This document shows positions 17,811 to 62,458 of a stretch of 64,000 nt of DNA, in pieces; positions within the stretch are counted from its first letter, which is position 1, and each line of letters opens with the position of its first letter. A program made the translations under genes and the position numbers. The stretch is from Nitrospirota bacterium (GTDB taxonomy: Bacteria > Nitrospirota > Nitrospiria > JACQBZ01): positions 3,551 through 67,550 of the forward strand of contig JACQCA010000025.1 in NCBI GenBank assembly GCA_016201865.1, given 5' to 3'. A model generated the notes under the pieces. That model was not told the origin of the DNA and did no database searches. It saw only the letters and a program-made list of their open reading frames with translations.

Positions 17811-17825
17811 AAAAAGGGGAAGTGG

Positions 17826-18965
17826 ATGGCATTAGAAGGCTCACTAAAGGATTTCGGTCTGGCCGATATTCTTCAATTGATCGGTCTCCAGAAAAAGACC
17901 GGGGTATTGACAATGAAGAATCCATCGACCGAGGCAAAGGTCCTGTTCGAAAACGGTTCCGTGGTTCTGGCGGACACGGCCCAACTTAAAGGGCTGGAGA
18001 AAATCGGCGAGGTTTTAGTTCGGGTCGGACTTATCTCTCAAGATCAACTCAAACAGGCTATTGCTAAACAGCGGTATAGTCACAAAAAAATAGGGATCAT
18101 TCTTGTCGAAATGGGGGCCCTTAAAAAGGAAGATCTGGTCAAGGCGCTTGGACTTCGCGTTAAAGAGACGGTCCTGAGCCTGTTTAAATGGAAAGAGGGC
18201 CGGTATCGTTTTGAGGCTTCCGAGGTCGAGTATGAGCGCGACTACTGTCCTCTCATGAACACCGAATTTATTATCATGGAGGGAGTCCGGCAATTGGATG
18301 AATGGCCGTATATCAAGAAAATCATTCCGAACCTCGATCTGATTTTCGGCAATAACAGCGACCATACGGAAAAGGCCGTACAGATCAAGGCTTCACAGGT
18401 GTCCGTCGACGATCTGAACGAGAAGATTCAAATCACGCAGGATGAGATGAGCGTTTACCGACTTGTGGACGGACAAAAAAATGTCCGAGACCTCATCGAA
18501 CTGAGCCAGTTGGGTGAATTTGAAACATGCAAGGCATTAAGCAGCCTGTTGACGGTCGGTCTGATTCTGCAGAAGCCCATTGCGGAAATGCCGATAACGG
18601 AACCGGAGAAGCCCATCGGTATGGAATTAAAGCGACTCCGGTTTACCGGTCAACTTATTTATAATGGATTGATTATCGCAGTATGCCTTATCCTGCTCGG
18701 TCTTGGCATTAAAAACATGACTTATGAAATCCCTGCAACCGTCTATTTAATAAAGCAATACCATGACCTGAGGGTTCAGAACCGGTTGATGCAGATCCGT
18801 TTCTCGATTGAGACTTACTATTATCGGAATAATCGGCTGCCGGAATCATTGGAAAAGCTTTTTCAAGAAGGTTATATTCACAACGGAGTCGGGGAGTTTT
18901 CTTATGAACCCCACCCTGACTCGTCTACGTTTGATCTTCAACTAAAGGCAAGACAGAATAACTAA
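17826..18965 (+). CDS. DUF4388-domain protein with a C-terminal TM helix and a pseudopilin-like tail
   Basis: N-terminus GSLKDFGLADILQLIGLQKKTGVLT (DUF4388/PATAN-type motif). TM LIYNGLIIAVCLILLGLGI. Lower GC than flanks. Confidence 0.6.
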   Translation: MALEGSLKDFGLADILQLIGLQKKTGVLTMKNPSTEAKVLFENGSVVLADTAQLKGLEKIGEVLVRVGLISQDQLKQAIAKQRYSHKKIGIILVEMGALKKEDLVKALGLRVKETVLSLFKWKEGRYRFEASEVEYERDYCPLMNTEFIIMEGVRQLDEWPYIKKIIPNLDLIFGNNSDHTEKAVQIKASQVSVDDLNEKIQITQDEMSVYRLVDGQKNVRDLIELSQLGEFETCKALSSLLTVGLILQKPIAEMPITEPEKPIGMELKRLRFTGQLIYNGLIIAVCLILLGLGIKNMTYEIPATVYLIKQYHDLRVQNRLMQIRFSIETYYYRNNRLPESLEKLFQEGYIHNGVGEFSYEPHPDSSTFDLQLKARQNN

Positions 18966-18994
18966 AAGTTTACATAATATTCATTATCAGACAC

Positions 18995-19597
18995 ATGCTT
19001 GAGGAAAAGGGGCCTGAAAGAATGAGGCAGGGTGACTTTGAAACATTCGGCCAATGGCTCTTAAACCGGATGGAAACCGTTCGGTTATCCCAAAATCAGT
19101 TCGCATCCTATTTGGGACATTCGGACGGTCTGTATGCAAAACGGCTCTGTAATGATGAAACGCGCCTCCAGATGAAGGACTGGCCGATCGTGGCAAAGCT
19201 TTTGCAATTAAGGCTCGATGAATTTTTAATCGTGCTTGAGTATTTTCATCCGAATTGGGTGATGGAATATGATGCATTTATTTCCAACTGTCTACGTTAT
19301 CTATTATGGCGTGTCGAACAGGACCAACAACACGATCTCCCCTTGCCGGAGTTTTTATTGACCGTCACGTTGGATGAAGTCATCGAACCGGCCTGCATCA
19401 GTCGATTCGATTCGACCGAGGATCAGCGGAAGATTGATCGAAGAACGACCCAAAGCGCTCCGGCAGAAGACAAGCGCGGGAAACCACGCCGGTTGACCGA
19501 TCTGGTCCGCTATCTTAAAAACCAACTCGGGGGTATTGCGCTGTTCCCCTTGTTCGCCTCCGGTTTATTCCTGATGCATGGATGGAGTCTTTCATGA
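18995..19597 (+). CDS. Hypothetical protein with an XRE-like HTH near the N-terminus
   Basis: FGQWLLNRMETVRLSQNQFASYLGHS helix-turn-helix-like segment. Start may be the internal MRQGDFE. Confidence 0.45.
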   Translation: MLEEKGPERMRQGDFETFGQWLLNRMETVRLSQNQFASYLGHSDGLYAKRLCNDETRLQMKDWPIVAKLLQLRLDEFLIVLEYFHPNWVMEYDAFISNCLRYLLWRVEQDQQHDLPLPEFLLTVTLDEVIEPACISRFDSTEDQRKIDRRTTQSAPAEDKRGKPRRLTDLVRYLKNQLGGIALFPLFASGLFLMHGWSLS

Positions 19598-37281: not shown

Positions 37282-38444
37282 CAGGATTGAATGAGGCTGA
37301 CGATCTTCTGGGCCCCCTCCCACATCGTCCGCGCCACGATAAGGTTCAGTCCGGATTCGGCGAGCATCTGCCGCGCCTCCTCGGCGTTCGTCCCTTCCAG
37401 CCGCACAACCAGCGGAACCTTGATGGCGACCTCTTTTGCGGCATCCATTACGCCGCCAGCGATCCGCTCGCATCGGACGATCCCGCCGAAGATATTGATG
37501 AAGACTCCCTTGACATTCCGGTCCGACATCAGAATCGTGAAGGCCTGCTTCACGGTTTCCTTCGAGGCGCCGCCCCCCACATCGAGGAAGTTGGCCGGGA
37601 AGGAACCGGCGAGCTTGATCGTGTCCATGGTGGCCATCGCCAGGCCGGCCCCGTTCACCATGCAGCCGATGGCCCCATCGAGTTTGACGTAGTTCAGACC
37701 GTATTGCGAAGCCTGAATCTCGAGAGGGTCTTCCTCGTCAAGATCGCGGAGCGCCTTGATGTCGTCATTCCGGTAAAGCGAATTATCGTCAAAGGTCACC
37801 TTGGCGTCCAATGCGATCAACTTTTGATCTCGGGTGACAACGAGCGGATTGATTTCGACCACGGAAGCGCCCTTTTCCATGAAGAGACGATAGAGGTTTC
37901 CCAACATAAGGACGAAGAGGCCGATGATCTCTTTTGCGAGCCCCAGGCGATAGGCCAGCATCCGTCCGTGAAAGGCCTGATAGCCGGCGGACGGATCGAT
38001 CAGGGCTTTGAGAATTTTCTCGGGCGAATGGGCCGCGACTTCTTCAATCTCCATGCCGCCCGCACGGCTCGCGATGAAGACGGGCCAGCCCGAAAACCGG
38101 TCTACGAGGAGGCTCACGTACAGTTCGCTCGCGATATCCGCGCCCTCTTCAATCAAAAGACGCTTCAACTTGCGTCCTTCCGGGCCGGTCTGATGGGTAA
38201 CGAGGACCTTTCCCAGAAGCTCCTTCGCCAGCGTTTCGACCTGCGCGCGCTCCTTGGTCAGCTTGACGCCGCCGGCCTTCCCCCGTCCGCCGGCATGAAT
38301 CTGGGCCTTTACCACATAGACGGAGGATTGAAGCTGGTCGGCCCAAGCTTTCGTCTCCTCGACTGTGGCGACGGCCTTCCCGCGTGGCACGGGGATATTA
38401 AACTGAGTAAAGAGCTGCTTGGCCTGGAATTCGTGGATGTTCAT
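37281..38444 (-). CDS. sucC: Succinyl-CoA synthetase beta subunit (ATP-grasp)
   Basis: MNIHEFQAKQLFTQFNIPVPRG... 387 aa. Confidence 0.95.
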   Translation of the reverse strand: MNIHEFQAKQLFTQFNIPVPRGKAVATVEETKAWADQLQSSVYVVKAQIHAGGRGKAGGVKLTKERAQVETLAKELLGKVLVTHQTGPEGRKLKRLLIEEGADIASELYVSLLVDRFSGWPVFIASRAGGMEIEEVAAHSPEKILKALIDPSAGYQAFHGRMLAYRLGLAKEIIGLFVLMLGNLYRLFMEKGASVVEINPLVVTRDQKLIALDAKVTFDDNSLYRNDDIKALRDLDEEDPLEIQASQYGLNYVKLDGAIGCMVNGAGLAMATMDTIKLAGSFPANFLDVGGGASKETVKQAFTILMSDRNVKGVFINIFGGIVRCERIAGGVMDAAKEVAIKVPLVVRLEGTNAEEARQMLAESGLNLIVARTMWEGAQKIVSLIQS

Positions 38445-38615
38445 TGGATGATATCCTGATTGATTGAGCTAACGGAGAGGCATTTTATCAGAGGATAAGG
38501 CGTGAAAGCAACTGGGATTTATGGACGGATTTTGCACGATCCATTCCATCCTTGCTTAAGCCCACGGCGCGGTTCATAATAGGTTCATCCACAAAATAAG
38601 CAGGAGGAACCCGTT

Positions 38616-38777
38616 ATGATGCTTTATATCCACAAGGACTGCGGTGAGCCCGCGGTAGAGCGGCCGGACGCCATCATGCCGGAACTTCCCGCCGAATTCC
38701 CCTTCACCTGCTTAAGCTGCCTCGGGGAAATCGAGGATGAATCGGATCTCACTGCGGTCGAGCTGATGAGCCAGTAG
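38616..38777 (+). CDS. Candidate small Cys-containing protein (53 aa)
   Basis: CAGGAGGAAC 8 nt upstream of ATGATG. MMLYIHKDCGEPAVERPDAIMPELPAEFPFTCLSCLGEIEDESDLTAVELMSQ. GC-rich codon third positions. Confidence 0.35.
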   Translation: MMLYIHKDCGEPAVERPDAIMPELPAEFPFTCLSCLGEIEDESDLTAVELMSQ

Positions 38778-38884
38778 ATGATCCCCGCGCGCAGTGTTTG
38801 ACGGCTCTGCTGTTCCACTTTTCCATTGTCCATCCTTTCACCCGAGTGTTTCAACAAACAACAAAAGATTTGACCCTTCACTTA

Positions 38885-39688
38885 TTAGTCAATAACGATA
38901 TCAACATTACTTCTGGAGCACCCTATGATGAATGAATTAGTGCCGATCATCACTTTATCCTCCCCGATAATTATGGGTTCGTAATTAGGGAAATGGAAAG
39001 TTCCTATGAGTTTAATTGAAGAAGAATTGAGATAACGGACGTTTAGAACTTGTCTCGCTTGTTGATCATATACAATCAGGGTATGGCTGTCTGGTCGTTC
39101 TATCCGAAAGTAATTATTTGGGTTTATATCAAATTTGTTCTTGTCGATTGTTGCCACTATTCTGTGGTCTGCGCTAAAGATTTTTGCGGTTAAGTAGATC
39201 GCATCTGCCTCCTTACCGAATGAGATCAGGTCCTCGCTGGCGACTCTTAAAACTGTATGAGGGAATTGGTCTGAAAAAAACGCTGATTTACCAATGTAGA
39301 CTGTAAAAAAATTAGATGGAATGTTGCATCGGGTTATAGGTGTGGGATCGTTTGCGGGCTGAAGGACTCCAGACATTTTGTTTTCATTCGCTTGTGAGGA
39401 TTGCTCGGATTTTCTCTGTGTAAGGACTTTAAGAAAAGCCTCATAGGAATCTTTATCGAGCGCATCATTTCCGTAATCTGTGCAAAGACGGAAGTGTAGC
39501 ACCTCAAACTCTTGCAGACCTGGTACCTCAGCCCGGATTCTCTGGTAAGTCTGTTGAATTTCTCCACCTGCTTTTAACGCTTCCTTAATCTTTGGAATAG
39601 ATGCTTCTACTTTTTCCTGGACCGAGGCAGTAAGAACGTCGGGTGGTGGTTCGTAACAATATACTACTTGACCGTCTTTCCGAATCAA
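38885..39688 (-). CDS. Hypothetical protein in a low-GC island. Annotated frame starts with TTG. A signal-peptide sORF (39685-39771, ATG with RBS) lies in the -1 frame, suggesting a frameshifted exported protein
   Basis: 267-aa ORF, AT-rich relative to flanks. Upstream MLRKYFVLLTIFFSSLVRVCHPQGTNIN* in another frame. Confidence 0.5.
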   Translation of the reverse strand: MIRKDGQVVYCYEPPPDVLTASVQEKVEASIPKIKEALKAGGEIQQTYQRIRAEVPGLQEFEVLHFRLCTDYGNDALDKDSYEAFLKVLTQRKSEQSSQANENKMSGVLQPANDPTPITRCNIPSNFFTVYIGKSAFFSDQFPHTVLRVASEDLISFGKEADAIYLTAKIFSADHRIVATIDKNKFDINPNNYFRIERPDSHTLIVYDQQARQVLNVRYLNSSSIKLIGTFHFPNYEPIIIGEDKVMIGTNSFIIGCSRSNVDIVID

Positions 39689-39883
39689 TTTATGTTCGTT
39701 CCTTGAGGATGGCAGACTCGCACAAGAGATGAGAAAAATATGGTAAGTAAAACAAAGTATTTGCGCAACATATAATTCTCCCTATCTTTTGTTATTTGTC
39801 TTCCTCGTGTCTTTCTTGTCGATGAATCCATTCATCTGAAGACATGGGTAATGGGACGGGTTTAGGGTAACAACTTTGTGAGA

Positions 39884-40054
39884 GATGTAAGAACCAGGGC
39901 GGATCACGGGTTTCCTTTTCTCCATCCGGCGGATGTGACCGTCTGAAAAAATCAAAAACGGCAGGAATGGCTCGACTGAGCGACTCGACCGAGTTCGTCG
40001 AGGGCTCGCCGAAGTCGGCCCGCGCCGGAAGAATAATGGATGGGATTATACCGG
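39884..40054 (-). repeat. Copy A of a ~125-nt conserved element (plus a 46-bp palindromic insertion), between the DUF2283 gene and low-GC cargo. Contains a TATAAT box, the palindrome CATCCG-C-CGGATG and a sORF start MEKRKPVI
   Basis: ~85% identical to 45632-45750 over ~125 nt when read on the minus strand. Identity stops exactly at the low-GC boundary. Confidence 0.5.
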
Positions 40055-45573: not shown

Positions 45574-45631
45574 TCGTCCACCATTATCTCAAAAAATGGG
45601 ACTGCTTTATTTCTTGGCATGCGTTATAAGA

Positions 45632-45750
45632 GATGTACGAACCAGCGCAGATCACGGGGTTCCTTTTCTCCATCCGGCGGATGTGACCGCGTGAAAAAAT
45701 TAAAGACGGCAGGAACGGCCCGCGCCGGAGGAATGATGGGAGGATGATAC
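45632..45750 (-). repeat. Copy B of the ~125-nt conserved element. Abuts the stop codon of a DUF2283 gene and the 5' side of low-GC cargo
   Basis: Aligns with 39884-40054 (minus the 46-bp palindromic insert). TATCAT box, CATCCG-C-CGGATG, sORF start MEKRNPVI. Confidence 0.5.
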
Positions 45751-48321: not shown

Positions 48322-50568
48322 TTAACTTAAGGCATTTAATGCCGAACCGGCCTTAAACCATCCGATCTGCTGTTCCGTCATGCTGTGGTTGGCCTGTATC
48401 TTGATCTCTTTTCCATCGGCCTTCTGAACCACGACCTCGACCGGCTTTTCCGGCGCAAGCTGAGCCAAGCCTCGAACGTTGACCCGATCACTCTGCTCGA
48501 ATTTTTCGTAATCCTTCGGATCGGCAAACGTCAACGGAAGGATGCCCTGTTTTTTCAAGTTGGTCTCATGAATACGTGCGAAGCTTTTCACGAGAACGGC
48601 CAGTACGCCCAGGAAGCGCGGCGACATCGCGGCATGCTCGCGGCTGGAACCCTCGCCGTAATTCTCATCGCCGATCACGACCGAGCCTATGCCTTTGGCC
48701 TTGTACCGGCGTGCAATCGCGGCGATCGTCAGGTTGGATTCGCCGGACAACACATCCGTCCCCTTGCCAGGCTCGGCGCTGAAGACGTTGTTCGCACCCA
48801 GAAACATGTTGTCGCTGATCTTGTCCAGATGGCCGCGATATTTGAGCCACTGCCCGGCGGGCGAGATATGATCGGTGGTGCATTTTCCCTTGGCCTTGAT
48901 CAGGATCGGCAGTTTTTCGAAATCCTTCCCGTCCCATCGTGGAAAAGGTTTTAAAAGCTGGAGCCGCTCACTCGTGGGCGGAATATCGATCTCGATCTTG
49001 TCGCCGTCCTTCGCGGGTGGTTCGAATCCTTCCTCGCCTTTTGCAAACCCTTTGGTCGGAAGTTCTTCCCCACGCGGCGGCTCGAACTTGATCTTCGTTC
49101 CGTCCGCGGCCGTCAGACTGCCCGTGATAGGATTGAAGTCCAAGGTTCCGGCAAAAGCCATGGCCGTAACGATTTCGGGACTCGAAAGGAAGGAAAGCGT
49201 CTCGGCATTCCCGTCGTTTCGGCCGGGGAAGTTTCGGTTGTACGAGCTGATGATCGAGTTGGACTCCTTCGGCTTCAGGTCGGATCGTTTCCATTGCCCG
49301 ATACAGGGTCCGCAGGCGTTGGCCAGCACCGTCCCGCCCATCGCTTCGAATGTTTTCATGAAGCCGTCACGGATCATCGTGTGATAGATCCGTTCGGACC
49401 CGGGCGTCACCAAAAAACCGGCCTTGGCCTTCAGGCCGGCTTTCAGCCCCTGAAGCGCGATATGGGCCGAGCGGCTGATGTCTTCATACGAGGAATTGGT
49501 GCAGGATCCGATGAGGGCGGCCTTTAATTCAACCGGGTATCCTTTTTCCTTCGCCTCGGCCGCGAGTTTCGAGATCGGCCGCGCCAGGTCCGGGGTATGC
49601 GGCCCGACGACGTGAGGTTCCAGCTCGGACAGGTTGATCTCGACGATCTGGTCGTAGTACTTTTCGGGTTTGACCATCACCTCCGGATCGGACATGAGGT
49701 TCTCCCGATTGGTCTGCGCCAGCTTGGCCCATTCGGCCCGGTCAGTTGCATTCAAATAGGCTGCCATCTTGTCGTCGAACTGGAAAATCGATGTGGTCGC
49801 CCCGAGCTCGGCGCCCATATTCGTGATCGTTCCCTTGCCGGTGCAGGAGATCGTCCCGGCGCCGGGCCCGAAATATTCGATGATCTTGTTCGTCCCGCCC
49901 TTCACCGTCAGTAGGCCGCAGAGATATAAAATCACGTCCTTCGGAGAGCTCCAGCCCTTCAACTGTCCCGTCAATCGAACGCCGATCAATTTGGGATGCA
50001 ACACCTCCCACGGCAGCCCGGCCATCACCTCGCCGGCATCCGCGCCGCCTACCCCGATCGCAAGCATGCCGAGCCCCCCGCCGTTCGGTGTGTGAGAATC
50101 GGTTCCGATCAGAAGCGCACCCGGAAAGGCGGAGTTCTCCAGAACGACCTGATGGATGATCCCCGCGCCCGGTTTCCAGAAACCGATCCCGAATTTCCGT
50201 GCGGCCGAACTTAGAAAATTGTAAACCTCCTTGTTCTCTTCGATCGCACGCCGAACGTCATCCTTCGCGCCGCTCTGCGCACGGATCAGATGATCGCAAT
50301 GGACCGTACTCGGGATGGCCACTTTTTTCTTTCCGGCCTGAATGAACTGGAGCAGCGCCATCTGGGCCGTCGCGTCCTGCATTGCGACCCGGTCCGGTCG
50401 CAGAAGAAGCTGGGCCTTGCCACGTTCCCAGACCTGGGCATTAAAATCATCGGCATGCGTCACCAGGATTTTTTCGGTCAATGTCAACGGACGGCCGAAT
50501 TTTTTCCGGGCCTTCGCCAGCTTTTCCGGCATGGAGGCATAAAGTTTTTTGATGGCTTCAACCGACAT
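48322..50568 (-). CDS. acn: Aconitate hydratase (aconitase family, ~750-aa type)
   Basis: GTDSHTPNGGGLG and other aconitase cluster-ligand motifs. 748 aa. Confidence 0.92.
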   Translation of the reverse strand: MSVEAIKKLYASMPEKLAKARKKFGRPLTLTEKILVTHADDFNAQVWERGKAQLLLRPDRVAMQDATAQMALLQFIQAGKKKVAIPSTVHCDHLIRAQSGAKDDVRRAIEENKEVYNFLSSAARKFGIGFWKPGAGIIHQVVLENSAFPGALLIGTDSHTPNGGGLGMLAIGVGGADAGEVMAGLPWEVLHPKLIGVRLTGQLKGWSSPKDVILYLCGLLTVKGGTNKIIEYFGPGAGTISCTGKGTITNMGAELGATTSIFQFDDKMAAYLNATDRAEWAKLAQTNRENLMSDPEVMVKPEKYYDQIVEINLSELEPHVVGPHTPDLARPISKLAAEAKEKGYPVELKAALIGSCTNSSYEDISRSAHIALQGLKAGLKAKAGFLVTPGSERIYHTMIRDGFMKTFEAMGGTVLANACGPCIGQWKRSDLKPKESNSIISSYNRNFPGRNDGNAETLSFLSSPEIVTAMAFAGTLDFNPITGSLTAADGTKIKFEPPRGEELPTKGFAKGEEGFEPPAKDGDKIEIDIPPTSERLQLLKPFPRWDGKDFEKLPILIKAKGKCTTDHISPAGQWLKYRGHLDKISDNMFLGANNVFSAEPGKGTDVLSGESNLTIAAIARRYKAKGIGSVVIGDENYGEGSSREHAAMSPRFLGVLAVLVKSFARIHETNLKKQGILPLTFADPKDYEKFEQSDRVNVRGLAQLAPEKPVEVVVQKADGKEIKIQANHSMTEQQIGWFKAGSALNALS

Positions 50569-50641
50569 GGAAGGCTCCCTTCCTCATTATCGTCTGGAAA
50601 TTTCATTCTAACGGGCCGCCGCAGCGATAGTCAACGGATAT

Positions 50642-52468
50642 CTATTTGAGCGGCGGGACGTCCTTCTTTTTCGGGGCCGCGTAATTGATCAGGTAATCGA
50701 ACAAACGGATCAAGCGGCTGCCCTGCTGCTTCTGATCGATCCAGTGGCCGATCAGGCCGATCGTCCGCGCCAGAATAAAAAAGCCGTTGAGGCTCTCGAC
50801 CGGGAAGCCCAGGTCGACCAGTACGGCCGCGATCGTTCCATCCACGTTGAGGATCAGTGTGTCTTTCTTGGCCGTCGTGATCTTTTCGACCTCCAGCGCA
50901 AAATCCAGATGCGGCGTGGAAATCTTCAGGCTCTTCACGTAACCCACGAGCTCTTTGACCCTTTTGTCCGGATTCTTTACGCTTTTGACGCGGTGGCCGA
51001 TTCCGGGAACCGGTCCGACATTGGCCTTCATGTAGGTCAAAAAGTCGTCCACCGAAAGCTTGTTTTCGACGGCATATTTAAACCACTTGCCCGCATCCGT
51101 GACGGCGCCCCCAAAGCGCGGCCCGATCATGATCATGCCGGCCGCGATCGACTGGGCCATCGAGATCCCGGCGCAGGACGCGATGATCGTCGTCAGCGCG
51201 CCCGAGACGGCCGGCCCGTGGTCGGCCGAGAGCATGATGATCCGTTTGATGATTTCGGCCTCCTGCTGCGTGATCAGTTTTTTGTTCCAGAGAAGGCCGA
51301 TGACGTGAGGAATCTGGTAGCCTTGATTGATCAGCTCCGAGGCGGCATAACCGTAATAGAGCGGCTCTTCCCCGCGGTCGTCCGAGATGGTGGTCTTCAC
51401 CATCGGCTCGACAAACACCTCGCCGCTTTTGCGTGACTCGTCGATCGTCTTGGGAAGCTTGGGCAGGGCCTCCGGTTCAACAGCCGGGGCTTCCTTCACC
51501 AGCCCTTTGGAAAGAAGCTCCTGGTAGACCTCTTTGATCGCGGGGCCGAGGCCGCCGAACGTGGCCGGCACGATCGCGCCGGCTTCGCGAAGACGGTCGG
51601 CTTTGTGCCGCGCGCTGCCTTCGCCCTTCATCCCTTCCTTTGCGCCGGCATGACCGAACTTCATTCCCTTGGGCAGCACCTCCTGGCAGAAGCCGGAGAT
51701 GACCGCCATTAATTTGATCCGGCGTTTTTTGGCGGCATACCAGTCGGCCGCCCGTTCTTCAAGATCACCGCCCATCTCGCCCACGATCACGACGGCATGG
51801 GTCTTCGGATCCTTTTCGAACATCTCAAGGTAGGTCACATAATCCGATCCCGGATAGGCGTCTCCCCCGATTCCGATCGCGGTCGTGACACCGTCGGCGA
51901 ACTGGCTGCAGATCCAGATGATCTCATTGGACAGGCCGCCGGATTTTGTGATCACGCCGAAGGAACCGGGACGGTAGAGCTTGCTCAAGATCAAATTGTC
52001 AAACGCGCCGCCGATCACGCCCAGACGGCATTCGCCGGCCGAGATGATGCCGATGGCGGACGGTCCGTTAAAAACCTTGCCCTTTTCCCGTGCGATGCGC
52101 GACAGCAGTTTGCTGTCCTTTTCGGGAACGCCCTCGGTGATCATCGAAACCAGCCGGATCGAACTCGTATTCAGCGCCTCGCGGGCCGCTCCGAGCGCCC
52201 GGTCGGGACCGACATAAACCAGACTGGTGTTGATCTCCGGATGACCGGCGACCGCCTCGGCCATTGTTTTGTAGACCGGGATTGAAACGATCTCGCTGCC
52301 GTAGGGCACTTCATTGATCTTTCCGGCATCCGGAGGAAAGACGAATGCCTGGACCGTCAGCGGCGCCTTGCTCAAATAACAGAATTCGGACATCCGGCGG
52401 GCCGCGTTCAGCCCGGCCGGACCGCCCTGGATCACCACCCGCGTATCGCGATTCGCCACGATGCTCAT
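50642..52468 (-). CDS. aclA: ATP-citrate lyase alpha subunit (CoA-binding/phosphohistidine plus citrate-synthase-like domain)
   Basis: 608 aa. SucD-like N-terminal domain (GxxGxxH loop), citrate-synthase-like C-terminal domain. ATGA overlap with aclB. Confidence 0.92.
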   Translation of the reverse strand: MSIVANRDTRVVIQGGPAGLNAARRMSEFCYLSKAPLTVQAFVFPPDAGKINEVPYGSEIVSIPVYKTMAEAVAGHPEINTSLVYVGPDRALGAAREALNTSSIRLVSMITEGVPEKDSKLLSRIAREKGKVFNGPSAIGIISAGECRLGVIGGAFDNLILSKLYRPGSFGVITKSGGLSNEIIWICSQFADGVTTAIGIGGDAYPGSDYVTYLEMFEKDPKTHAVVIVGEMGGDLEERAADWYAAKKRRIKLMAVISGFCQEVLPKGMKFGHAGAKEGMKGEGSARHKADRLREAGAIVPATFGGLGPAIKEVYQELLSKGLVKEAPAVEPEALPKLPKTIDESRKSGEVFVEPMVKTTISDDRGEEPLYYGYAASELINQGYQIPHVIGLLWNKKLITQQEAEIIKRIIMLSADHGPAVSGALTTIIASCAGISMAQSIAAGMIMIGPRFGGAVTDAGKWFKYAVENKLSVDDFLTYMKANVGPVPGIGHRVKSVKNPDKRVKELVGYVKSLKISTPHLDFALEVEKITTAKKDTLILNVDGTIAAVLVDLGFPVESLNGFFILARTIGLIGHWIDQKQQGSRLIRLFDYLINYAAPKKKDVPPLK

Positions 52469-53748
52469 CGTCTCGCCTCCCTGGCTCTCCCGCTCCTCGT
52501 CTTTGCCGTTCCAGTTTTCTCACGCAAAGGCGCCGCCGCAGCCGCCGTCTCTTTTTGAAGGGACATGTCCACGATATCGGTCAGGGGGGTGTTGCGATCG
52601 AAGACATGGATCAAGAACCCTTCGGACTCGAGGGTCTTCATCGCGGCCAGTCCATCCTTTTCATAGGGGCCTCCGCGACGGACCCAGATTTCGACGTTGC
52701 CGAGCTTACCCTGGGCCTTGGCTTTGCGGAAGCCGGCGATGATCCCGGCGAAGGTTTTTTTGACGTTGGTAAAATTGGCGATTGCGCCGCCCACGATGAT
52801 CCGTTGGATGTTGGGAAGGGAACAGACCTTTTCGGTCAGAACTTCGACCGCCCAGTCGGGAGGATCCCCGGAATACTCGGCGTAATTCGCCGGCTTACCG
52901 CCGAGGGCGACGACGGCATCGGTATAGAAGACGCTGGCCCCGCCGCCGGCCGGGAGCAGCGCCGTATCACCGCCCGGGATCTCGATGAATTTGACCGAAC
53001 CCTTGATTTTGGAATCCACCTCCATCACGGCCCGTTCATTCTCGGAATAGGGCCGTCCGAACTCGGCCGCAAACGAAAAGTCCCAGTCCGGATGACGGAA
53101 ACGGGCGTCCGCGTCCAGCAAGGTTACCGCATCCAGCGCCACCAGTTCGCGATCGGCGGAACGCAGCACGAGCGGATTGATCTCAAGATACTGCGCATCC
53201 TCCTGCTCAAAGCACTGATGCAGCTTGGCCGCAAACTCCACGATGCGCGGTGTCAGGTCCTTGTCGAATCCAGCCCGTTTGGACAGGTCAGTCAGCTCAT
53301 TTTTGGATGGTACTTCACCGATTGGGATGGATATTTTCTTGACGTTGTCCCAATTCGACTCGATCTCGATCCCGCCCACGCTCGCAAGCAACAGCTCCGC
53401 GCCTTCCCGCGTGGACTTGACTGAAATATAATATTCCTCCTTGTGAGGGATCATCTCGGAGACGATCACCTGGGAGATCGTCATTCCGCCGCCGAGCGAT
53501 CTACCCAGCATTTCCTTGACCGCACGTTTGGCCGCGTCCAGATCGAGATCCACCTTGACCAGACCCAGCTTCATTCTGGAGCCGATCGCCTCATGGGCTT
53601 TCACGACTAAACGGGATTCCTTCAACCAGGCATTGGCCGAGGCTAACTGCTCGAACTGTTCCGTGGAGGTCACAACCAGATAGCCCGGAACGCTCATCCC
53701 CCACTTCTTCAATAAGCCCATCCCCGGGCCTTCAAGCACCTTTGCCAT
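52465..53748 (-). CDS. aclB: ATP-citrate lyase beta subunit (ATP-grasp, SucC-like)
   Basis: 427 aa. ATP-grasp and CoA-ligase motifs. AGGAGG RBS. Ala/Arg-rich C-terminal tail. Confidence 0.92.
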   Translation of the reverse strand: MAKVLEGPGMGLLKKWGMSVPGYLVVTSTEQFEQLASANAWLKESRLVVKAHEAIGSRMKLGLVKVDLDLDAAKRAVKEMLGRSLGGGMTISQVIVSEMIPHKEEYYISVKSTREGAELLLASVGGIEIESNWDNVKKISIPIGEVPSKNELTDLSKRAGFDKDLTPRIVEFAAKLHQCFEQEDAQYLEINPLVLRSADRELVALDAVTLLDADARFRHPDWDFSFAAEFGRPYSENERAVMEVDSKIKGSVKFIEIPGGDTALLPAGGGASVFYTDAVVALGGKPANYAEYSGDPPDWAVEVLTEKVCSLPNIQRIIVGGAIANFTNVKKTFAGIIAGFRKAKAQGKLGNVEIWVRRGGPYEKDGLAAMKTLESEGFLIHVFDRNTPLTDIVDMSLQKETAAAAAPLREKTGTAKTRSGRAREARR

Positions 53749-55498: not shown

Positions 55499-58205
<2,707 letters not shown>

Positions 58206-58265
58206 GATGCGCTCCTAAAGATTTCGTGCGAGGCGGAATGACGTCTTGATGTCGGCGGCCTGTCC

Positions 58266-58625
58266 CTATTTATCAAATGGACGCACTCGCGTTCGTCCCG
58301 GTACAACAACTGTGATACGTCCTTCAAAGTCTTTCGGCTTGGTTGTTTTTAGGACCTTGGAAAACAGCCGCGTAATCTGCTCGCCTGTAAACGTATCAGG
58401 AACCCGAATGAGAATAAGACCCGATGGATAGGGACGGATCTGTGGGAAGGGAAAATCAAGATCCTTTGTGATTAGAATGCGTCGTTCACGAGCCGCCAGC
58501 ATCCAAAGCAACTCGTCCGGTGAGCTTCGAAGAGTACTTGCGGCAACATCGAAGGTGTCGTGACCGGCGTCCCGGAGAAGCCCGATCAGACTGAAGGGAA
58601 GGTTCTCATCGACGAGGAAGTGCAT
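58266..58625 (-). CDS. DUF5615 (PIN-like) family protein
   Basis: MHFLVDENLP... Start set at MHFLV. Confidence 0.65.
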   Translation of the reverse strand: MHFLVDENLPFSLIGLLRDAGHDTFDVAASTLRSSPDELLWMLAARERRILITKDLDFPFPQIRPYPSGLILIRVPDTFTGEQITRLFSKVLKTTKPKDFEGRITVVVPGRTRVRPFDK

Positions 58626-58836
58626 GCACTTTTTCTTCAGCCAATGTCTCCGCAGCATAAGACAAGGCCGCCTGGACGTCTTCCGCCGTCACGCGATATT
58701 CTTCACAGACCTCGTCGGCAGTCATTCCTCCCGCCAAGCCTCCTACGATCACCTGCACCGGCACGCGCGTTCCCTTAATCACGGGTTTCCCCCCCATGAC
58801 CTTCGGATCAATCACAATGCGGCTTTTCTTCTGCAT
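58606..58836 (-). CDS. DUF433-family protein (partner of DUF5615)
   Basis: IDPKVMGGKPVIKGTRVPVQVIV...TAEDVQAALSYAAE. Confidence 0.7.
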   Translation of the reverse strand: MQKKSRIVIDPKVMGGKPVIKGTRVPVQVIVGGLAGGMTADEVCEEYRVTAEDVQAALSYAAETLAEEKVHALPRR

Positions 58837-59136
58837 GGCTCATCGTCTCCATCAAGGATAATTATTCTACGAGAAGCATTTCGAATGTGCAAGGTTAAAA
58901 GAAACCGACAAACCTCAAATAGAAATCCTCACCCTGCGCCATGGCGTGAGACGATTCGAAAATAAAAGCTTGCAGAGAAATGCTCTCTCCCTTCATAAGG
59001 AGGAAATCCAGAAAAGTCAATAAGGCCTGCCCTTTCACTTTCAGGCCGGGCGACTAACATTCCGTCAGGGAAGCGTCACTCAAAAGTAAAGATGCGGCCC
59101 TTTCCTTTGGATAATAGTGTCTGTCCCTATTTCTTT

Positions 59137-59610
59137 TTAGGGCTTAAAATAGAGAACCACAACATCTGTTCCATCGGGACCTTTTCCTATACTGGAGTCG
59201 ATCTGCTCGCCGAGGTTTGGTAAATCACCGGTTCTGACGTAATCGTTGTACAGCACGAGGGCTTCAGTCTCAGTCATATACTTAGCCCGCCAGCCGATAA
59301 GATATTCTTTATGTAGTTGCGAACTTGGATACTTTGTTTTCAAAATGTGCTCTACATATTTTCTTTCCTCCGGGGGAGGACCCGCAGCTCCTGCTCCTAA
59401 CAGATAAGCGACTACAGATATTTTTTTAGGTGGATCTGTGCTTTTGCCTGCGGCTCTGACCTTCTCTTCCGGATCGTACCTTCCGCTGTAAACATCCCGC
59501 CAATCGTATACGGAACCACAATTTCCACATGTCGAGCTGCCCTGATAGTTGGTAGGCAAAGGTTCGCCTGAGCGGAATACAGAACCATAGGATGATTTCT
59601 TCAACACCAT
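59137..59610 (-). CDS. Hypothetical protein (157 aa) inside the IR-bounded module
   Basis: ORF with a CGNCG motif. ATG overlaps the stop of the upstream sORF. Confidence 0.5.
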   Translation of the reverse strand: MVLKKSSYGSVFRSGEPLPTNYQGSSTCGNCGSVYDWRDVYSGRYDPEEKVRAAGKSTDPPKKISVVAYLLGAGAAGPPPEERKYVEHILKTKYPSSQLHKEYLIGWRAKYMTETEALVLYNDYVRTGDLPNLGEQIDSSIGKGPDGTDVVVLYFKP

Positions 59611-59753
59611 ATCACATTTTGGTCACTCCAGATTTTGCTGTCGCTTACCTTTGTTGCCGAGGTGGGTAGGATTGACATGCTGCCACCACTAGCCGCTGGT
59701 TCAGCAAATGGTGTTTTGTCTTTCTTGCCGAATAGTTTAGTGAATAGGCTCAT
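59601..59753 (-). CDS. Candidate sORF (50 aa) translationally coupled to the 157-aa gene
   Basis: AAGGAGG 6 nt upstream of the ATG. Stop overlaps the downstream ATG (ATATGGTGTTGA). Confidence 0.3.
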   Translation of the reverse strand: MSLFTKLFGKKDKTPFAEPAASGGSMSILPTSATKVSDSKIWSDQNVIWC

Positions 59754-59971
59754 ATCTTATTCCTCCTTCATTTATAACCAACCTTTTTGTTCTTTGGCGA
59801 TTTTTCCGCCTTACCTTTCGGTTCAACGGTCAGTTTCAGCCCCATTGATCGCACTAATCAACTCCTTCGCTGGCTTGCCTAAGGAGACCGCAAGAAAGAA
59901 TTAAACAGCATACTTTAACCCCGTTTTTGCGTTTTTAAAACGTCCTTCGCATTCTTCAGCTATAATGCCGC

Positions 59972-61051
59972 TTATTTTGTAACCGGCGTAGCACGAAGGG
60001 GTGCCTTGCCAGTATTCCAGGCCCGTTTTGCGTCAGCAGAAGCTACTTTTAAATCGATCCTTCTTTTTCTGGCGCCCTGCTCACAAAGCAGAATCGGGGT
60101 AGCCGTCCCTGGTGAGAACATAACGTTGGCATTTAACCGCGTTTTGACGCGTTCAATCTTTTTTTCGACCTCTTTTATCGAGCGAGCGTCTTTTCTAAAG
60201 TCGACAACACCTTGTGTGATATACAAATACCCGGTGCCACGAGGAATTGTAGCGCCCGGCCAACCACAGGAATAATCGTCATCTGAGCACAGACCATCAT
60301 CTTTAGGCATCTGTACCTCGAAGGACTCCATGAGGTACTCCTCTTGATTTTGCCCCCACCACTCCTGCCATTCCTTCGTCTCTTGTCCACAATCCGTGGC
60401 CGAAAACTGTTTCAAGACACTAATCACCTTGTCTCGTAACGCTTTCGTCCTTGCCAAGCTAACACCGACAGTCGCAGCTGCCAATCTATTTGCAAGCTGC
60501 GACCGAGCATCGGTGACCCCCTTCTGCTCCAGGTCTCCTATCTGATCTGTAAAATCTATTGATCCAAACCCTACGCGCCCATCGCGCCAGCTTGCTGAAA
60601 TTGCCCCTGACCACATGTTTACGTCTTCATTTGCTTTTTCCGACTGCTCGATGATCTCATTATCTAAGCGTTCTAAGATAGCAATCAACGCGCCTAATGC
60701 TTGCCCGTCTTTTATCATGGCGAATGCTTCTACCGTGGCACTAATCACATCCTCATTACAGTACGTTCCCTGAGTCTCTTTATCCACCATATTACAAAGC
60801 ACCTTTACAGCCCGTTTATCACCTAATTTACCTAATGCCTTAATAGCGACTTCACGAACATCGTAATTCTCTACCATAGGAACAAGCAGCGCCACAGCCC
60901 GCTTATCACCTATCTCACCCAATGCCCGAATAGCAGATTTACGAATATCAAGATCTTTCCTGTACGATACCGCCTTAATCAATCCTTCAATATCCTTCCG
61001 TGCCTTAAGAATGCCAATATTGGGCTTGAAGAGAGATGAGAACCTGAACAT
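59972..61051 (-). CDS. HEAT-repeat (PBS-lyase-type) protein with an uncharacterised C-terminal domain
   Basis: DIRKSAIRALGEIGDKRAVALLVPMV...VREVAIKALGKLGDKRAVKVL repeats. AAGGAGG RBS. Confidence 0.65.
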   Translation of the reverse strand: MFRFSSLFKPNIGILKARKDIEGLIKAVSYRKDLDIRKSAIRALGEIGDKRAVALLVPMVENYDVREVAIKALGKLGDKRAVKVLCNMVDKETQGTYCNEDVISATVEAFAMIKDGQALGALIAILERLDNEIIEQSEKANEDVNMWSGAISASWRDGRVGFGSIDFTDQIGDLEQKGVTDARSQLANRLAAATVGVSLARTKALRDKVISVLKQFSATDCGQETKEWQEWWGQNQEEYLMESFEVQMPKDDGLCSDDDYSCGWPGATIPRGTGYLYITQGVVDFRKDARSIKEVEKKIERVKTRLNANVMFSPGTATPILLCEQGARKRRIDLKVASADAKRAWNTGKAPLRATPVTK

Positions 61052-61418
61052 TTTGGACCTCCTTTGCAGATGATTCGTCTAACAGGACGTTGAAAAACTC
61101 GCTTAAATAAATTTGATTCTCGTTATGAAGAAAAATTTCACTCTCAAAACGGTATGGACTGGGGAAAATCTTCGTATAAAAAAATTGGGGAAATTAGGGA
61201 CAGACACTATTTATTGAGATCCTTTCTTGGGTCTTCCCCTCGGTAAGACGCTTCCACATTGTAAACGGGAGTCTTGTCCGAGACGCCCACGCCGGCGGAG
61301 AATTAATGGCGGGAGTATACCCCTTGGAATCAAGGCTGTCAATATAGTGTACGAAGGCCGCCGCGTCCTTGACTTCCACGCGCCCGTCTTATAAACTCCA
61401 CCTTGATAGAGGCGCTTT

Positions 61419-61865
61419 ATGACGATGAAAGAAGATACGGCATCTCTTGTTGAGAAACTGAAGACGATGCTGGAGCCGAGACAAGAAATCGCGGCAGCCT
61501 ACCTCTACGGCTCCACGGCCGAAGGAACCGCCGGCCGTCACAGCGATGTGGATATCGCCATCCTGCGGGATGAGACCGCTACCGACAAGGACTATCCCTT
61601 CGGTTATAAGGCCGAGCTCCTATCGGATCTCATGAAAACCCTCCGCACCAATTCCGTCGATCTCGTTATTGCCAACCATGCTCCTCCCTTCCTCCGGTTT
61701 CAGATCGTCCGTCATGGCCGGTTGATTTTCTCACGGTCTGAAGCTCTGACGATAGAATTCCAGGTCAAAGCGATTGCCGAATACGACGACATCAAGAGGC
61801 TGCAAGATATCCAGAACCGATACCTTTCCAAACGGCTCAAAAACGGGACCTACGGAAAAACATAA
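61419..61865 (+). CDS. mntA: Nucleotidyltransferase antitoxin (MntA-like)
   Basis: YGSTAEGTAGRHSDVDIAIL. Confidence 0.8.
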   Translation: MTMKEDTASLVEKLKTMLEPRQEIAAAYLYGSTAEGTAGRHSDVDIAILRDETATDKDYPFGYKAELLSDLMKTLRTNSVDLVIANHAPPFLRFQIVRHGRLIFSRSEALTIEFQVKAIAEYDDIKRLQDIQNRYLSKRLKNGTYGKT

Positions 61866-62294
61866 ATGGACACAAGGCTGATCAGGAAAAAACTTGGCGA
61901 ACTGGAAAAGTACGTTCAAGCTCTCGAAAAACTGAAGCCCCATACGCTCCAAGAGTTGCGCTCGGACATGGTCAAAGCGTGGTCCGTGGAGCATGGCCTT
62001 CAACTGGCCATCCAGACCGTCATTGATACCGGAAGCCACATCCTGGCCGCGCTGGGAGAGCAGGAGATCGAAGACTACGCCGACGTCATGGATAAGCTTG
62101 GGGAACGGAATATTCTACCGGCAGCCTTTGCGAAGACGATCCGGGGCATGGTGGGCGTTAGGAACATCCTGGTTCACGAGTACGCCGCGGTGGATCTGAA
62201 AAAGATACACGAGATTCTGAAAAGCAGGCTGGACGATTTCCGAAAATTTGCCAAGTGTATCGACGAATACCTTTCTTCCTCATCGAAATCCTGA
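61866..62294 (+). CDS. hepT: HepT/DUF86 HEPN-type toxin
   Basis: RNILVHEYAAVD (Rx4-6H HEPN motif). Starts 1 nt after the mntA stop. Confidence 0.8.
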   Translation: MDTRLIRKKLGELEKYVQALEKLKPHTLQELRSDMVKAWSVEHGLQLAIQTVIDTGSHILAALGEQEIEDYADVMDKLGERNILPAAFAKTIRGMVGVRNILVHEYAAVDLKKIHEILKSRLDDFRKFAKCIDEYLSSSSKS

Positions 62295-62458
62295 TTCAGT
62301 AAGCAATAGTGACAGTCTTTATTACGCTCCATTAAGCTCTCCAACATCAAAAACCCAAAAAAATCGGTTACCTTTTTATACGGCTTGACAGGGAATGGCT
62401 CCGGTTGCGTAAGAAGATTTAGGTCTGTTATACTGGCGTCAATTCATGGAGGCCGAGA

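Follow-up and report, generated by a model that had tools for sequence, protein, structure and literature searches.

Inverted copies of a REP-like repeat around a low-GC operon probably are not the operon's own transposition ends

When a perfect inverted repeat encloses a stretch of foreign-looking DNA, are its arms the ends of a mobile element? The question is raised by a 64-kb stretch of DNA, analyzed here as a whole (the window), in which a perfect inverted repeat surrounds the 2 kb of lowest GC. A sequence-only reading had described the interval as a low-GC module with three co-oriented AT-rich genes, one of them a coupled short ORF (sORF), and had interpreted it as a MITE-like mobile cassette. 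Our analysis points elsewhere: We favor the view that the inverted repeat consists of two REP-like repeat copies, M, flanking a foreign operon whose own transposition ends they do not represent.

The inverted repeat

The 16-mer ATAGTGTCTGTCCCTA at 59114-59129 has its exact reverse complement at 61195-61210. The perfect match is in fact 17 bp long (59113-59129 on the plus strand and 61195-61211 on the minus strand), and it stretches to 20 bp with one mismatch. The 17-mer, M, is AATAGTGTCTGTCCCTA, and a longer form of ∼21 nt reads aAATAGTGTCTGTCCCTA(T/A)TT. No further copy of the 16-mer occurs in the window when up to two mismatches are allowed, and a degenerate third M at 62305-62321 has four mismatches, which is at chance level. 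The left arm begins 7 nt past the last stop codon of the operon, and at the other end 144 nt separate the first start codon from the right arm upstream of it, in agreement with the spacing given earlier (7 and ∼140 nt).

Of simulated order-2 Markov sequences of 64 kb, 2% contained a perfect 17-bp inverted pair whose arms lay within 5 kb of each other; chance is excluded outright, since the same 17-mer recurs with extended flanks in many other genomes. Target-site duplications, which the earlier reading proposed as a check, are absent next to both arms (left outside ...CTTTGGAT, right outside TATTGAGA...). Y1 transposases generate no target duplication, so this absence is a weak test and is not decisive. 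The 24-mer left of the left arm, used to look for an empty site by exact flank, has no match in metagenomes. No Rfam family is present in the region or at M doublets, and in the literature the M motif is present only in unrelated fish primer sequences.

M belongs to a RAYT-associated repeat family

Exact copies of M are found in at least 119 stretches of other genomes, with many copies per genome; several MAGs carry it on at least four to seven contigs each. These loci hold 150 exact copies, and 190 at up to three mismatches. Among the matches listed, M clusters in Omnitrophota, Elusimicrobia, Nitrospirota, Methylomirabilis, anammox Planctomycetota, and Desulfobacterota. The copies occur as hairpin doublets, at the flanks of genes for a 225-aa RAYT (Y1/HUH transposase), and between ordinary genes (intergenic in L125 and L118, for example), and pairs of them also flank aldolases, a radical-SAM protein, a D-Ala-D-Ala carboxypeptidase, and an FtsH neighbor. 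M is thus present at many unrelated positions without bounded cargo, which is the very finding that the sequence-only reading had named as refuting its idea of private cassette ends.

The matches listed include 31 adjacent M pairs that are doublets <60 nt apart. Their layout is M(−)-spacer-M(+), and there are no M(+)M(−) doublets among these matches. A single M unit has no clear palindrome, its only stem being the 6-bp AAATAG/CTATTT of the T-variant; the hairpins come from the doublets.

In L053 and L109, M copies enclose a gene that matches Pfam Y1_Tnp and NCBIfam REP_Tyr_transpos (for L053, NF047646 at 80.6 bits against a cutoff of 80, and Y1_Tnp at 1.5e-16), and the L053 protein has visible HVH and RYVERNPV motifs. 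By tblastn, RAYT matches are present in 26 of the 119 listed M loci, mostly directly beside M. The inverted M copies around the gene are spaced 727 nt apart in L053, 729 in L109, 728 in L075, 719 in L031, and 700 in L083. The RAYT stop codon lies inside M, and in intact elements (e.g., L053, L104, and L109) a TTGACA stands directly next to M. Internally deleted mini-elements of 272 bp are found in L014, L059, and L088. RAYT proteins that share the identical 17-mer are only 42%-57% identical to each other, across at least six phyla. We read M as a short repeat that REP-associated tyrosine transposases have spread through many bacterial phyla; that a RAYT acts on M is presumed from family membership.

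The two arms have different surroundings

Repeat homology in the window is limited to 59101-59151 and 61169-61253. On the right, 61189-61253 is 87%-94% identical to the RAYT 3′ end plus M of L109, L053, L014, L059, and L075 (E = 1e-11 to 1e-16), the homology running 42-58 nt outward into RAYT 3′ coding sequence. At 61212-61384 (minus strand), tblastn and the ORF listing show what remains of a RAYT gene's C-terminal coding part: Residues 166-222 of the L109 RAYT align with 61384-61220 (37% identity, E = 0.014, a weak remnant), residues 198-224 of the L053 RAYT align with 61288-61214 (56% identity), and the ORF at 61211-61342 terminates in ...VLPRGRPKKGSQ followed by its stop codon. The remnant has a host-like GC of 0.53 and is closest to copies from Nitrospirae and Methylomirabilis (L109, L075, and L014).

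Farther out, 61314-61349 (minus strand) comprises a promoter-like site, TTGACA-17-TATACT (61342-61314; 11 of 12 consensus matches), and an outer partial M, ATAGTGT (61343-61349). Together they form what is left of the decayed 5′ end of a mini-RAYT element, pointing into the operon, which may be transcribed from this putative residual promoter of the RAYT. Since the homology of the right arm extends outward into the RAYT 3′ end, the arm reads as the end of this neighboring decayed element (61195 to ∼61349), outside the module, and not as an end of the module. The earlier statement that no transposase lies inside the module is borne out, with the remnant of a transposase gene immediately outside its right arm.

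The left arm is an exact match to M, and we regard it as a solo copy. It shares a 23-nt identity with RAYT-flanking M copies in L014 and L059; its likeness to other M copies is confined to ∼59101-59151, and tblastn finds no RAYT remnant to its left.

The operon between the arms

There are three co-oriented low-GC ORFs on the minus strand, as reported, but two of them are fragments of one gene. The first gene (59972-61051) is intact and encodes a 359-aa protein with PBS-lyase-type HEAT repeats at its N terminus (residues 21-93; Pfam HEAT_2, 5e-14; HEAT_PBS, 1e-12). Its C terminus (residues ∼237-359; nt 59975-60343) is a conserved Cys-rich domain without a Pfam family, which has four conserved cysteines, ends in WWETGxVPLRATP, and is common to proteins of many architectures (47%-60% identity). 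In structure prediction, a follow-up the earlier reading had proposed, the AlphaFold2 model of the 359-aa protein has a pLDDT of 86.8 and the C-terminal domain of the 157-aa product reaches ∼90. Neither by fold nor by sequence does the 359-aa protein have a significant match in PDB or BFVD. Like CpcE, CpcF, and NblB, it has two to three N-terminal HEAT_PBS repeats. Unlike them, it reaches only 23-45 bits where the family cutoffs are 220-330, and the match covers residues 12-121 only, the rest of the protein being unrelated. HEAT_PBS repeats are also fused to the domain of the second gene (P0100), which marks them as a generic scaffold.

The 50-aa sORF (59601-59753) and the 157-aa ORF (59137-59610), both on the minus strand, belong together as parts of one ∼205-aa zinc-ribbon protein. 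The sORF (MSLFTKLFGKKDK...SKIW) aligns with the N termini of the single-ORF homologs P0081 and P0083. The 157-aa ORF is 67%-70% identical to P0081-P0083 and contains a second zinc knuckle followed by a beta-alpha-beta-alpha-beta-beta domain; a profile search with it recovers 34 representatives at E < 1e-10, fused to HEAT, TPR, or SIR2 (one distant fusion, P0094, has a SIR2_2 domain). AAGGAGG precedes the 359-aa and 50-aa ORFs, so the ribosome-binding sites claimed for the module exist for the first two ORFs, while the 157-aa ORF has no Shine-Dalgarno sequence of its own. The overlap of stop and start codons noted between the 50-aa and 157-aa ORFs is real, lying in ATATGGTGTTGA.

DNA alignment with the homologous loci L001 and L002, together with translation in the repaired frame, places the lesion at 59623-59627 (minus strand): The Lys codon that follows TGG has lost one nucleotide, between 59627 and 59626, and a TGA (59625-59623) replaces the first Cys codon of a CPKC zinc knuckle. 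The supposed coupled sORF is therefore a frameshift artifact of gene decay. An assembly error is rejected as the cause, given that the sequence is 100% identical in three independent run assemblies (Logan) and that there are two lesions; a programmed frameshift is rejected because the repaired frame still meets the TGA. At 58810 two of the run assemblies are interrupted. The second gene is probably a recent pseudogene, split by the frameshift and the nonsense codon.

Beyond the left arm, at 59010-59048 (minus strand), GGCCTG...CAGGCC with a T-rich tail is a candidate intrinsic terminator that possibly ends the operon; it comes from reading the sequence and folding 59000-59112, and a consensus terminator scan made no call there.

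The two genes do not form a conserved pair, the family of the HEAT protein's C-terminal domain and that of the second gene not occurring together in L001, L002, or L127-L132. On one JGI contig, a homolog of the second gene directly follows the gene for a HEAT protein. A "50 aa + 207 aa" pair adjacent to P0017 turned out to be unrelated. The suggested defense or conflict role finds no support: PADLOC matches only the generic HEAT-ARM repeat region of the 359-aa protein, and the neighborhoods of homologs are housekeeping and not conserved, with no conserved partner genes.

Composition and the accessory island

The low GC reported for the module is confirmed (0.457 at 59130-61194, the lowest 2-kb stretch of the window, vs. 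a window median of 0.566). GC3 of the module genes is 0.44-0.47, compared with 0.63-0.66 in idh, MNT, HepT, and purC, and the segment just inside the right arm (61052-61194) has only 35% GC. The right arm falls within the right change-point interval of GC (61189-61489); on the left side, the best-fitting boundary of composition is 58760-58890 and not 59113.

The module is part of an accessory island at 57838-62403. In L135, the closest syntenic relative, idh is 86% identical and the order purC-p84-Zn119-idh is kept, and the 4.57-kb block is replaced by 72 nt. The sequence-only reading had proposed a comparison with relatives lacking the insertion; this sole syntenic relative lacks the larger block rather than the module alone. 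The order in the island (Pfam) is an orphan HigA-like antidote, a DUF5615/DUF433 pair, M, the module, M, RAYT debris, and an MNT/HepT pair; the description of the location as lying among toxin-antitoxin modules holds. On these sequence data, the module appears to be a horizontally acquired low-GC operon of two genes, the second of them broken.

Integron gene cassettes have an attC site with R″/R′ cores (RYYYAAC/GTTRRRY) 3′ of a promoterless ORF and an integrase nearby. There are no such cores in the arms or in the doublets and no integrase among the ORFs around 57-64 kb, and this candidate was rejected.

How the repeats may have come to flank the operon

In the explanation we consider probable, a RAYT of this family, encoded by a gene lying between inverted M copies with its stop codon in M, would bind and cut M as single-stranded DNA and rejoin it elsewhere. 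It would thereby have scattered REPIN-like hairpin doublets, the 272-bp mini-elements, and solo copies through intergenic DNA in many groundwater and sediment phyla. One mini-element, now decayed (61195 to ∼61349), would have come to lie just upstream of the operon and supplied the right arm, and a solo copy 7 nt downstream would be the left arm; between them would lie the acquired low-GC operon, within the 4.6-kb island. That M copies stand on both sides of the operon would follow from the settling of such repeats between genes. Against independent settling stands the fact that the 64 kb contain only two M copies and that both border one operon, the most foreign one. A further point against it is that the right GC change-point interval spans the right arm.

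That bracketing, with the fit of the right compositional boundary to the right arm, is what speaks for an insertion of the 2.1-kb operon as a non-autonomous, REPIN-like unit, the inverted M copies serving as functional ends used in trans by a RAYT. Non-autonomous RAYT derivatives are known in the 272-bp elements, and the lack of a target duplication is not decisive for a Y1 enzyme. In L083 the RAYT gene, which sits between two M doublets, is directly flanked by M(+)...M(−), the relative orientation seen in the module, so the orientation is compatible with a cargo arrangement. We nevertheless hold such an insertion to be unlikely. The homology of the right arm goes on outward into RAYT coding sequence, the best left boundary is not at the left arm, and no second M-bounded copy of the operon genes was found. 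The close homologs of the second gene (L001 and L002) are without M, and kilobase-spaced M pairs flank ordinary housekeeping genes elsewhere. In addition, gene mobilization by RAYT/REP systems is not reported in PMC3116915 or PMC5581495. That the M copies are live RAYT ends, and that REP/RAYT machinery carried protein-coding genes into this genome, seems improbable to us, though it would explain why the window's only two copies edge its most foreign DNA. Insertion of the module into the loop of a doublet is rejected, since the M(−)-spacer-M(+) orientation of doublets is opposite to the module's M(+)...M(−).

Alternatively, the operon could have been recombined in from an M-rich donor (e.g., a low-GC member of the Omnitrophota or Elusimicrobia), with the flanking M copies arriving as intergenic repeats of that donor. 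The foreign GC3 of the module and the 35% GC just inside the right arm would agree with this, as would the observation that, among the matches listed, M-dense genomes belong mostly to low-GC lineages from the same groundwater project. However, the RAYT remnant outside the right arm is host-like in GC and closest to Nitrospirae and Methylomirabilis copies, and relatives of either cargo gene occur in none of the 119 listed M-bearing loci; we think a joint arrival quite unlikely. We give very little credence to a role at the RNA level, in which the arms would pair within one mRNA as a 5′UTR-3′UTR duplex, an RNase III site or stabilizing clamp controlling the operon: The promoter-like site upstream of the right arm, the position of the left arm before the only terminator-like hairpin, and a predicted intermolecular duplex of −34.2 kcal/mol fit it, but no such pairing exists at the homologous loci L001 and L002, and membership in a repeat family explains the arms without selection on pairing.

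Comparison with known mobile repeats

The M family resembles REP/REPIN-RAYT systems (Nunvar 2010; Bertels and Rainey 2011, PMC3116915; Bertels 2017, PMC5581495) in several respects. A RAYT-type Y1/HUH gene flanked by inverted short repeats is present in other genomes (the window has a C-terminal remnant only), and the transposase gene is usually solitary. The repeat is scattered in extragenic DNA, many copies per genome and often in inverted hairpin doublets; this abundance is that of other genomes, the window's own genome contributing two copies in the 64 kb seen. Classical REP units are imperfect palindromes that carry a GTAG or CGTC tag (PMC3733652), whereas M has no such tetranucleotide and its single unit no clear palindrome. 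Unlike classical, lineage-specific REPs, the identical 17-mer extends across many phyla despite the divergence of the RAYT proteins, and the internally deleted mini-elements, which are also unlike classical REP/RAYT systems, suggest that the whole RAYT unit transposes like an insertion sequence.

With MITEs and cargo transposons the module shares inverted repeats that bracket transposase-less DNA and a related autonomous element bearing the same repeats. It differs from them in having no target-site duplication and 2.1 kb of unique cargo seen once, and in that one arm belongs to an adjacent element and M mostly stands without bounded cargo. Outside the right arm there is RAYT 3′ coding sequence instead of unrelated host DNA. 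Of the mobile-cassette interpretation, what survives is that the repeat belongs to mobile DNA and that the genes are compositionally foreign; the arms do not appear to be private termini of a MITE-like carrier.

The RAYT belongs to the same Y1 HUH transposase fold family (PF01797) as IS200/IS605 and presumably shares a single-strand DNA mechanism. It scores only 25.6 bits with the NCBIfam IS200 model NF033573 (cutoff 55) and is not accompanied by TnpB. IS200/IS605 elements have distinct subterminal hairpins and not inverted terminal copies, unlike the RAYT elements, which have inverted M copies at their ends.

Implications

The apparent cassette bounded by an inverted repeat would be a by-product of a generic repeat family, a warning that a single inverted repeat should not be read as transposon ends without a check of copy number. 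REP/RAYT-type repeats as such are known; what is newly seen is this member of them, next to foreign genes of unknown function. The family keeps an identical 17-nt repeat despite 42%-57% protein identity and has MITE-like deletion derivatives. Both traits set it apart from the REP/RAYT systems described to date, which are lineage-specific and vertically inherited, and could help to test how RAYTs recognize and spread their repeats. The operon, for its part, exposes two uncharacterized domain families, the four-cysteine domain and the zinc ribbon with its beta-alpha-beta-alpha-beta-beta domain. Both are recurrently fused to HEAT/TPR scaffolds or to membrane anchors.

The inverted repeat and the low-GC module

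The inverted pair of 16-mers that the sequence-only reading placed at 59114-59129 and 61195-61210 is present at those positions, and the perfect repeat extends to 17 bp (59113-59129, plus strand; 61195-61211, minus strand), or to 20 bp with one mismatch. We refer to this 17-mer (AATAGTGTCTGTCCCTA) as M and to its two inverted copies as the arms. They enclose three ORFs, all on the minus strand, of 359, 50, and 157 aa. The low GC content noted for this module also holds: positions 59130-61194 have a GC content of 0.457, the lowest of any 2-kb stretch (window median, 0.566), and a GC3 of 0.44-0.47 vs. 0.63-0.66 in idh, MNT, HepT, and purC. Judged from the window alone, the pair is unusual but not overwhelming: an inverted pair perfect over 17 bp and at most 5 kb apart arose in 2% of order-2 Markov sequences of the window's size and composition.

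Two other low-GC stretches (about 16800-19000 and about 37800-39200; 0.46-0.48 in 2-kb windows) have no flanking M copies. The 17-mer AATAGTGACAGTCTTTA (62305-62321), directly after the HepT stop codon and close to the right edge of the accessory island, shares 13 of its 17 positions with M, no more than chance would give in this window. The longest repeat in the window is a 99-nt direct repeat (39876-39974 and 45624-45722; 88% identical, 5.7 kb apart), whose similarity runs on to 40039 and 45739.

A repeat family associated with a RAYT gene

Further copies of the terminal repeat are many in other genomes; the window holds no third one at up to two mismatches. Scanning one genome per species for M, we matched at least 119 stretches, about 70 being expected by chance for a 17-mer over the whole genome collection. 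The matches listed cluster in Omnitrophota, Elusimicrobia, Nitrospirota, Methylomirabilis, anammox Planctomycetota, Desulfobacterota, and Desantisbacteria, and among them several MAGs have four to seven M-bearing contigs each. The copies share an A-rich 5′ flank and (T/A)TT on the 3′ side. Four arrangements occur in the loci listed: compact doublets, M(-)M(+), consisting of TAGGGACAGACACTATT, a 6-12-nt spacer, and AATAGTGTCTGTCCCTA (among the matches listed, 17 exact and 31 at up to three mismatches); pairs 700-730 nt apart with a 225-aa gene inside; pairs 272 nt apart with an internally deleted version of that gene inside; and solo copies.

The 225-aa gene (in L053 and L109, two of these loci) matches Pfam Y1_Tnp (1.5e-16) and the NCBIfam REP-associated tyrosine transposase (RAYT) equivalog (80.6 bits; cutoff, 80), whereas the IS200 equivalog scores it at just 25.6 bits (cutoff, 55). 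Its stop codon lies inside M, the protein ending ...VLPRGRPKK.... Of the 119 loci listed, 26 contain RAYT-like sequence, mostly directly adjoining M, and M-flanked RAYT genes (L053:3749-4492, L109:2122-3006, and L083:4749-5523; also L031, L075, L103, L104, and L119) are found in Nitrospirota, Omnitrophota, Elusimicrobia, Desulfobacterota, and NC10. The 272-bp mini-elements (L014:2906-3194, L059:363-651, and L088:902-1189) are MITE-like derivatives of the RAYT element with an internal deletion: both M ends remain, as do about 49 N-terminal codons and the final codons of the RAYT. One Methylomirabilis MAG has at least two of them.

This arrangement has the same anatomy as the REP/REPIN-RAYT systems described by Bertels and Rainey (PMC3116915, PMC5581495). 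However, M is far more conserved across phyla than classical lineage-specific REPs, the identical 17-mer flanking RAYT proteins that are only 42%-57% identical to one another, and the MITE-like deletion derivatives are a further difference from the classical systems. The kind of family is thus known, but this family itself seems new to description, since M has no Rfam family and its motif had no match in the searched literature.

A segment comprising the final 7 nt of M (GTCCCTA) and the 6-9 nt that follow is tandemly duplicated, once or twice, immediately beyond many M copies (L012:2125-2170, L085:3947-3995, L117:170-215, L016, and L109:2100-2140). L109 also carries a 63-76-nt unit (RAYT 3′ end plus M) in three tandem copies.

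Origin of the two arms

It is close to certain that both arms are copies of the RAYT-associated repeat. On the right, 61189-61253 is 87%-94% identical (E 1e-11 to 1e-16) to the RAYT 3′ end plus M in L109, L053, L075, L014, and L059; the ORF at 61211-61342 ends ...VLPRGRPKKGSQ*, and weak protein similarity to RAYT residues 166-222 extends to 61384. A TTGACA-17-TATACT site (61342-61314; 11 of 12 consensus positions) is followed by a partial M (ATAGTGT, 61343-61349), and in intact RAYT elements TTGACA directly adjoins M. Given the 3′-end similarity and this layout, 61195 to about 61349 is a decayed mini-RAYT element outside the module, with the right arm as its end. The left arm resembles other M copies over about 23 nt only, has no RAYT remnant beside it, and is a solo copy. 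Within 58.7-61.5 kb, homology to the repeat family is confined to 59101-59151 and 61169-61253.

We consider it probable that the arms are generic repeats flanking a foreign operon. That they also served as the ends of a cargo unit, the MITE-like carrier of the sequence-only reading, is less certain than their family membership and, in our judgment, unlikely. The only two M copies in 64 kb do bracket the most foreign DNA, the element has non-autonomous derivatives, and in L083 the RAYT gene itself lies between M(+) and M(-); yet the right arm belongs to an element outside the module, no second copy of the module was found, and the cargo homologues lack M. The repeat is, moreover, generic: pairs oriented as in the window and kilobases apart enclose ordinary genes in L125 (aldolases, a radical-SAM protein, and a D-Ala-D-Ala carboxypeptidase) and L118 (an unknown protein adjoining FtsH). 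A target-site duplication was looked for outside the arms and none was found. Marginally less probable is an arrival of the M copies as passengers from a repeat-rich donor. A selected RNA 5′-3′ duplex between the arms is very improbable, its predicted -34.2 kcal/mol applying if both are co-transcribed.

Insertion of the module into a doublet loop is ruled out by orientation: doublets are M(-)M(+) and the module M(+)...M(-), and no M(+)M(-) doublet was seen among the loci listed.

The accessory island

In the closest relative with the same synteny (L135; idh 86% identical), 72 nt separate purC-p84-Zn119 from the idh upstream region, and in the window 4.57 kb (57838-62403) stand in their place (compare L135:6240-6464). 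A relative without the module thus exists, but the gap there corresponds to the whole 4.57 kb, not to the module alone. This island comprises three TA-type modules, the HEAT operon, and RAYT debris, in the order orphan HigA-like antidote, DUF5615/DUF433 pair, M, module, M, RAYT debris, and MNT/HepT pair. No toxin is paired with the antidote (57756-58205), whose ORF continues into conserved idh-upstream sequence. Since GC3 differs between the three blocks (0.52-0.58, 0.44-0.47, and 0.63-0.66, in order), the island is a mosaic of separate acquisitions. The module is an ordinary foreign operon with one gene decayed. A two-change-point GC model delimits a low-GC block at 58810-61229 (ranges, 58760-58890 and 61189-61489): the right arm fits the right boundary, and the left boundary falls about 270 nt beyond the left arm, although the stretch between is an AT-rich promoter region.

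The best-fit left GC change point, 58810, is also the exact position at which the Logan contigs of two independent runs (SRR12113409 and SRR12113410) begin; the contig of a third run spans it. The position may mark a junction between strains, or else a break in the DUF433 gene induced by a repeat. The TCA gene cluster is rearranged in the window and L135: most relatives (idh 80%-87% identical) have aconitase immediately upstream of idh, whereas here the purC side takes that position and aconitase is found about 5 kb past the idh stop codon (window, 48332-53238 and 55499-57742; L134, L136-L138, L140-L142, and L177).

Proteins encoded in the module

The 359-aa protein of gene 1 (59972-61051, minus strand) has two to three PBS-lyase-type HEAT repeats, scoring far below the equivalog cutoffs for phycobilin lyases. 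Its last ~120 residues form a separate conserved domain whose invariants include D16, G17, C19, C26, R35, G36, Y39, C87, E88, W109, and a PLR-TP segment, with C24 nearly so. This domain recurs at 47%-60% identity in many architectures (N-terminal in membrane-anchored proteins, with a solute-binding domain, after TPR, and after HEAT). Its predicted fold (pLDDT 86.8) has no significant match in PDB or BFVD, nor its profile in PDB.

The 50-aa sORF (59601-59753), which had been read as a separate coupled gene, and the 157-aa ORF (59137-59610) are pieces of one broken gene, as homologues and DNA alignment indicate. Three close homologues (67%-70% identity) are single ORFs of 176-216 aa, and two of them (P0081 and P0083) begin with the sORF sequence, M..F.KLFGKKDK...SKIWKCPKCG. 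In the alignment, one nucleotide is missing from the Lys codon that follows TGG, and the restored frame has TGA where the first Cys of the CPKC knuckle should be. The lesion is real, since the assemblies of three independent runs all match the window exactly here. Half of the zinc ribbon is missing from the 157-aa piece, which also has no Shine-Dalgarno sequence; gene 2 is most likely a recent pseudogene, although a truncated, coupled product may possibly still be made.

A profile search found 34 representatives of the gene 2 domain family (E<1e-10), with fusions to HEAT repeats (P0100, with an N terminus similar to that of gene 1), to TPR, and, in one case, to SIR2_2 together with TPR. The C-terminal beta-alpha-beta-alpha-beta-beta domain has a confident structure model, whose only structure matches are thioredoxin-like and insignificant. 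The defence or conflict function once thought plausible finds no backing: no defence model matched beyond the repeats, and the cargo homologues have no conserved neighborhood, their regions resembling housekeeping ones. At most, one can infer a HEAT scaffold that carries an interaction domain, probably zinc-binding, and that formerly had as its partner a zinc-ribbon protein of a family built on the same scaffolds.

The motif M..F.(K/R)LFGKK(D/E)K, at the sORF N terminus (59714-59753), is a recurrent N terminus of otherwise different proteins in these families (P0081, P0083, P0089, P0002, and L002:1631-1777), often followed by a linker and zinc ribbon, and may be a short amphipathic targeting helix.
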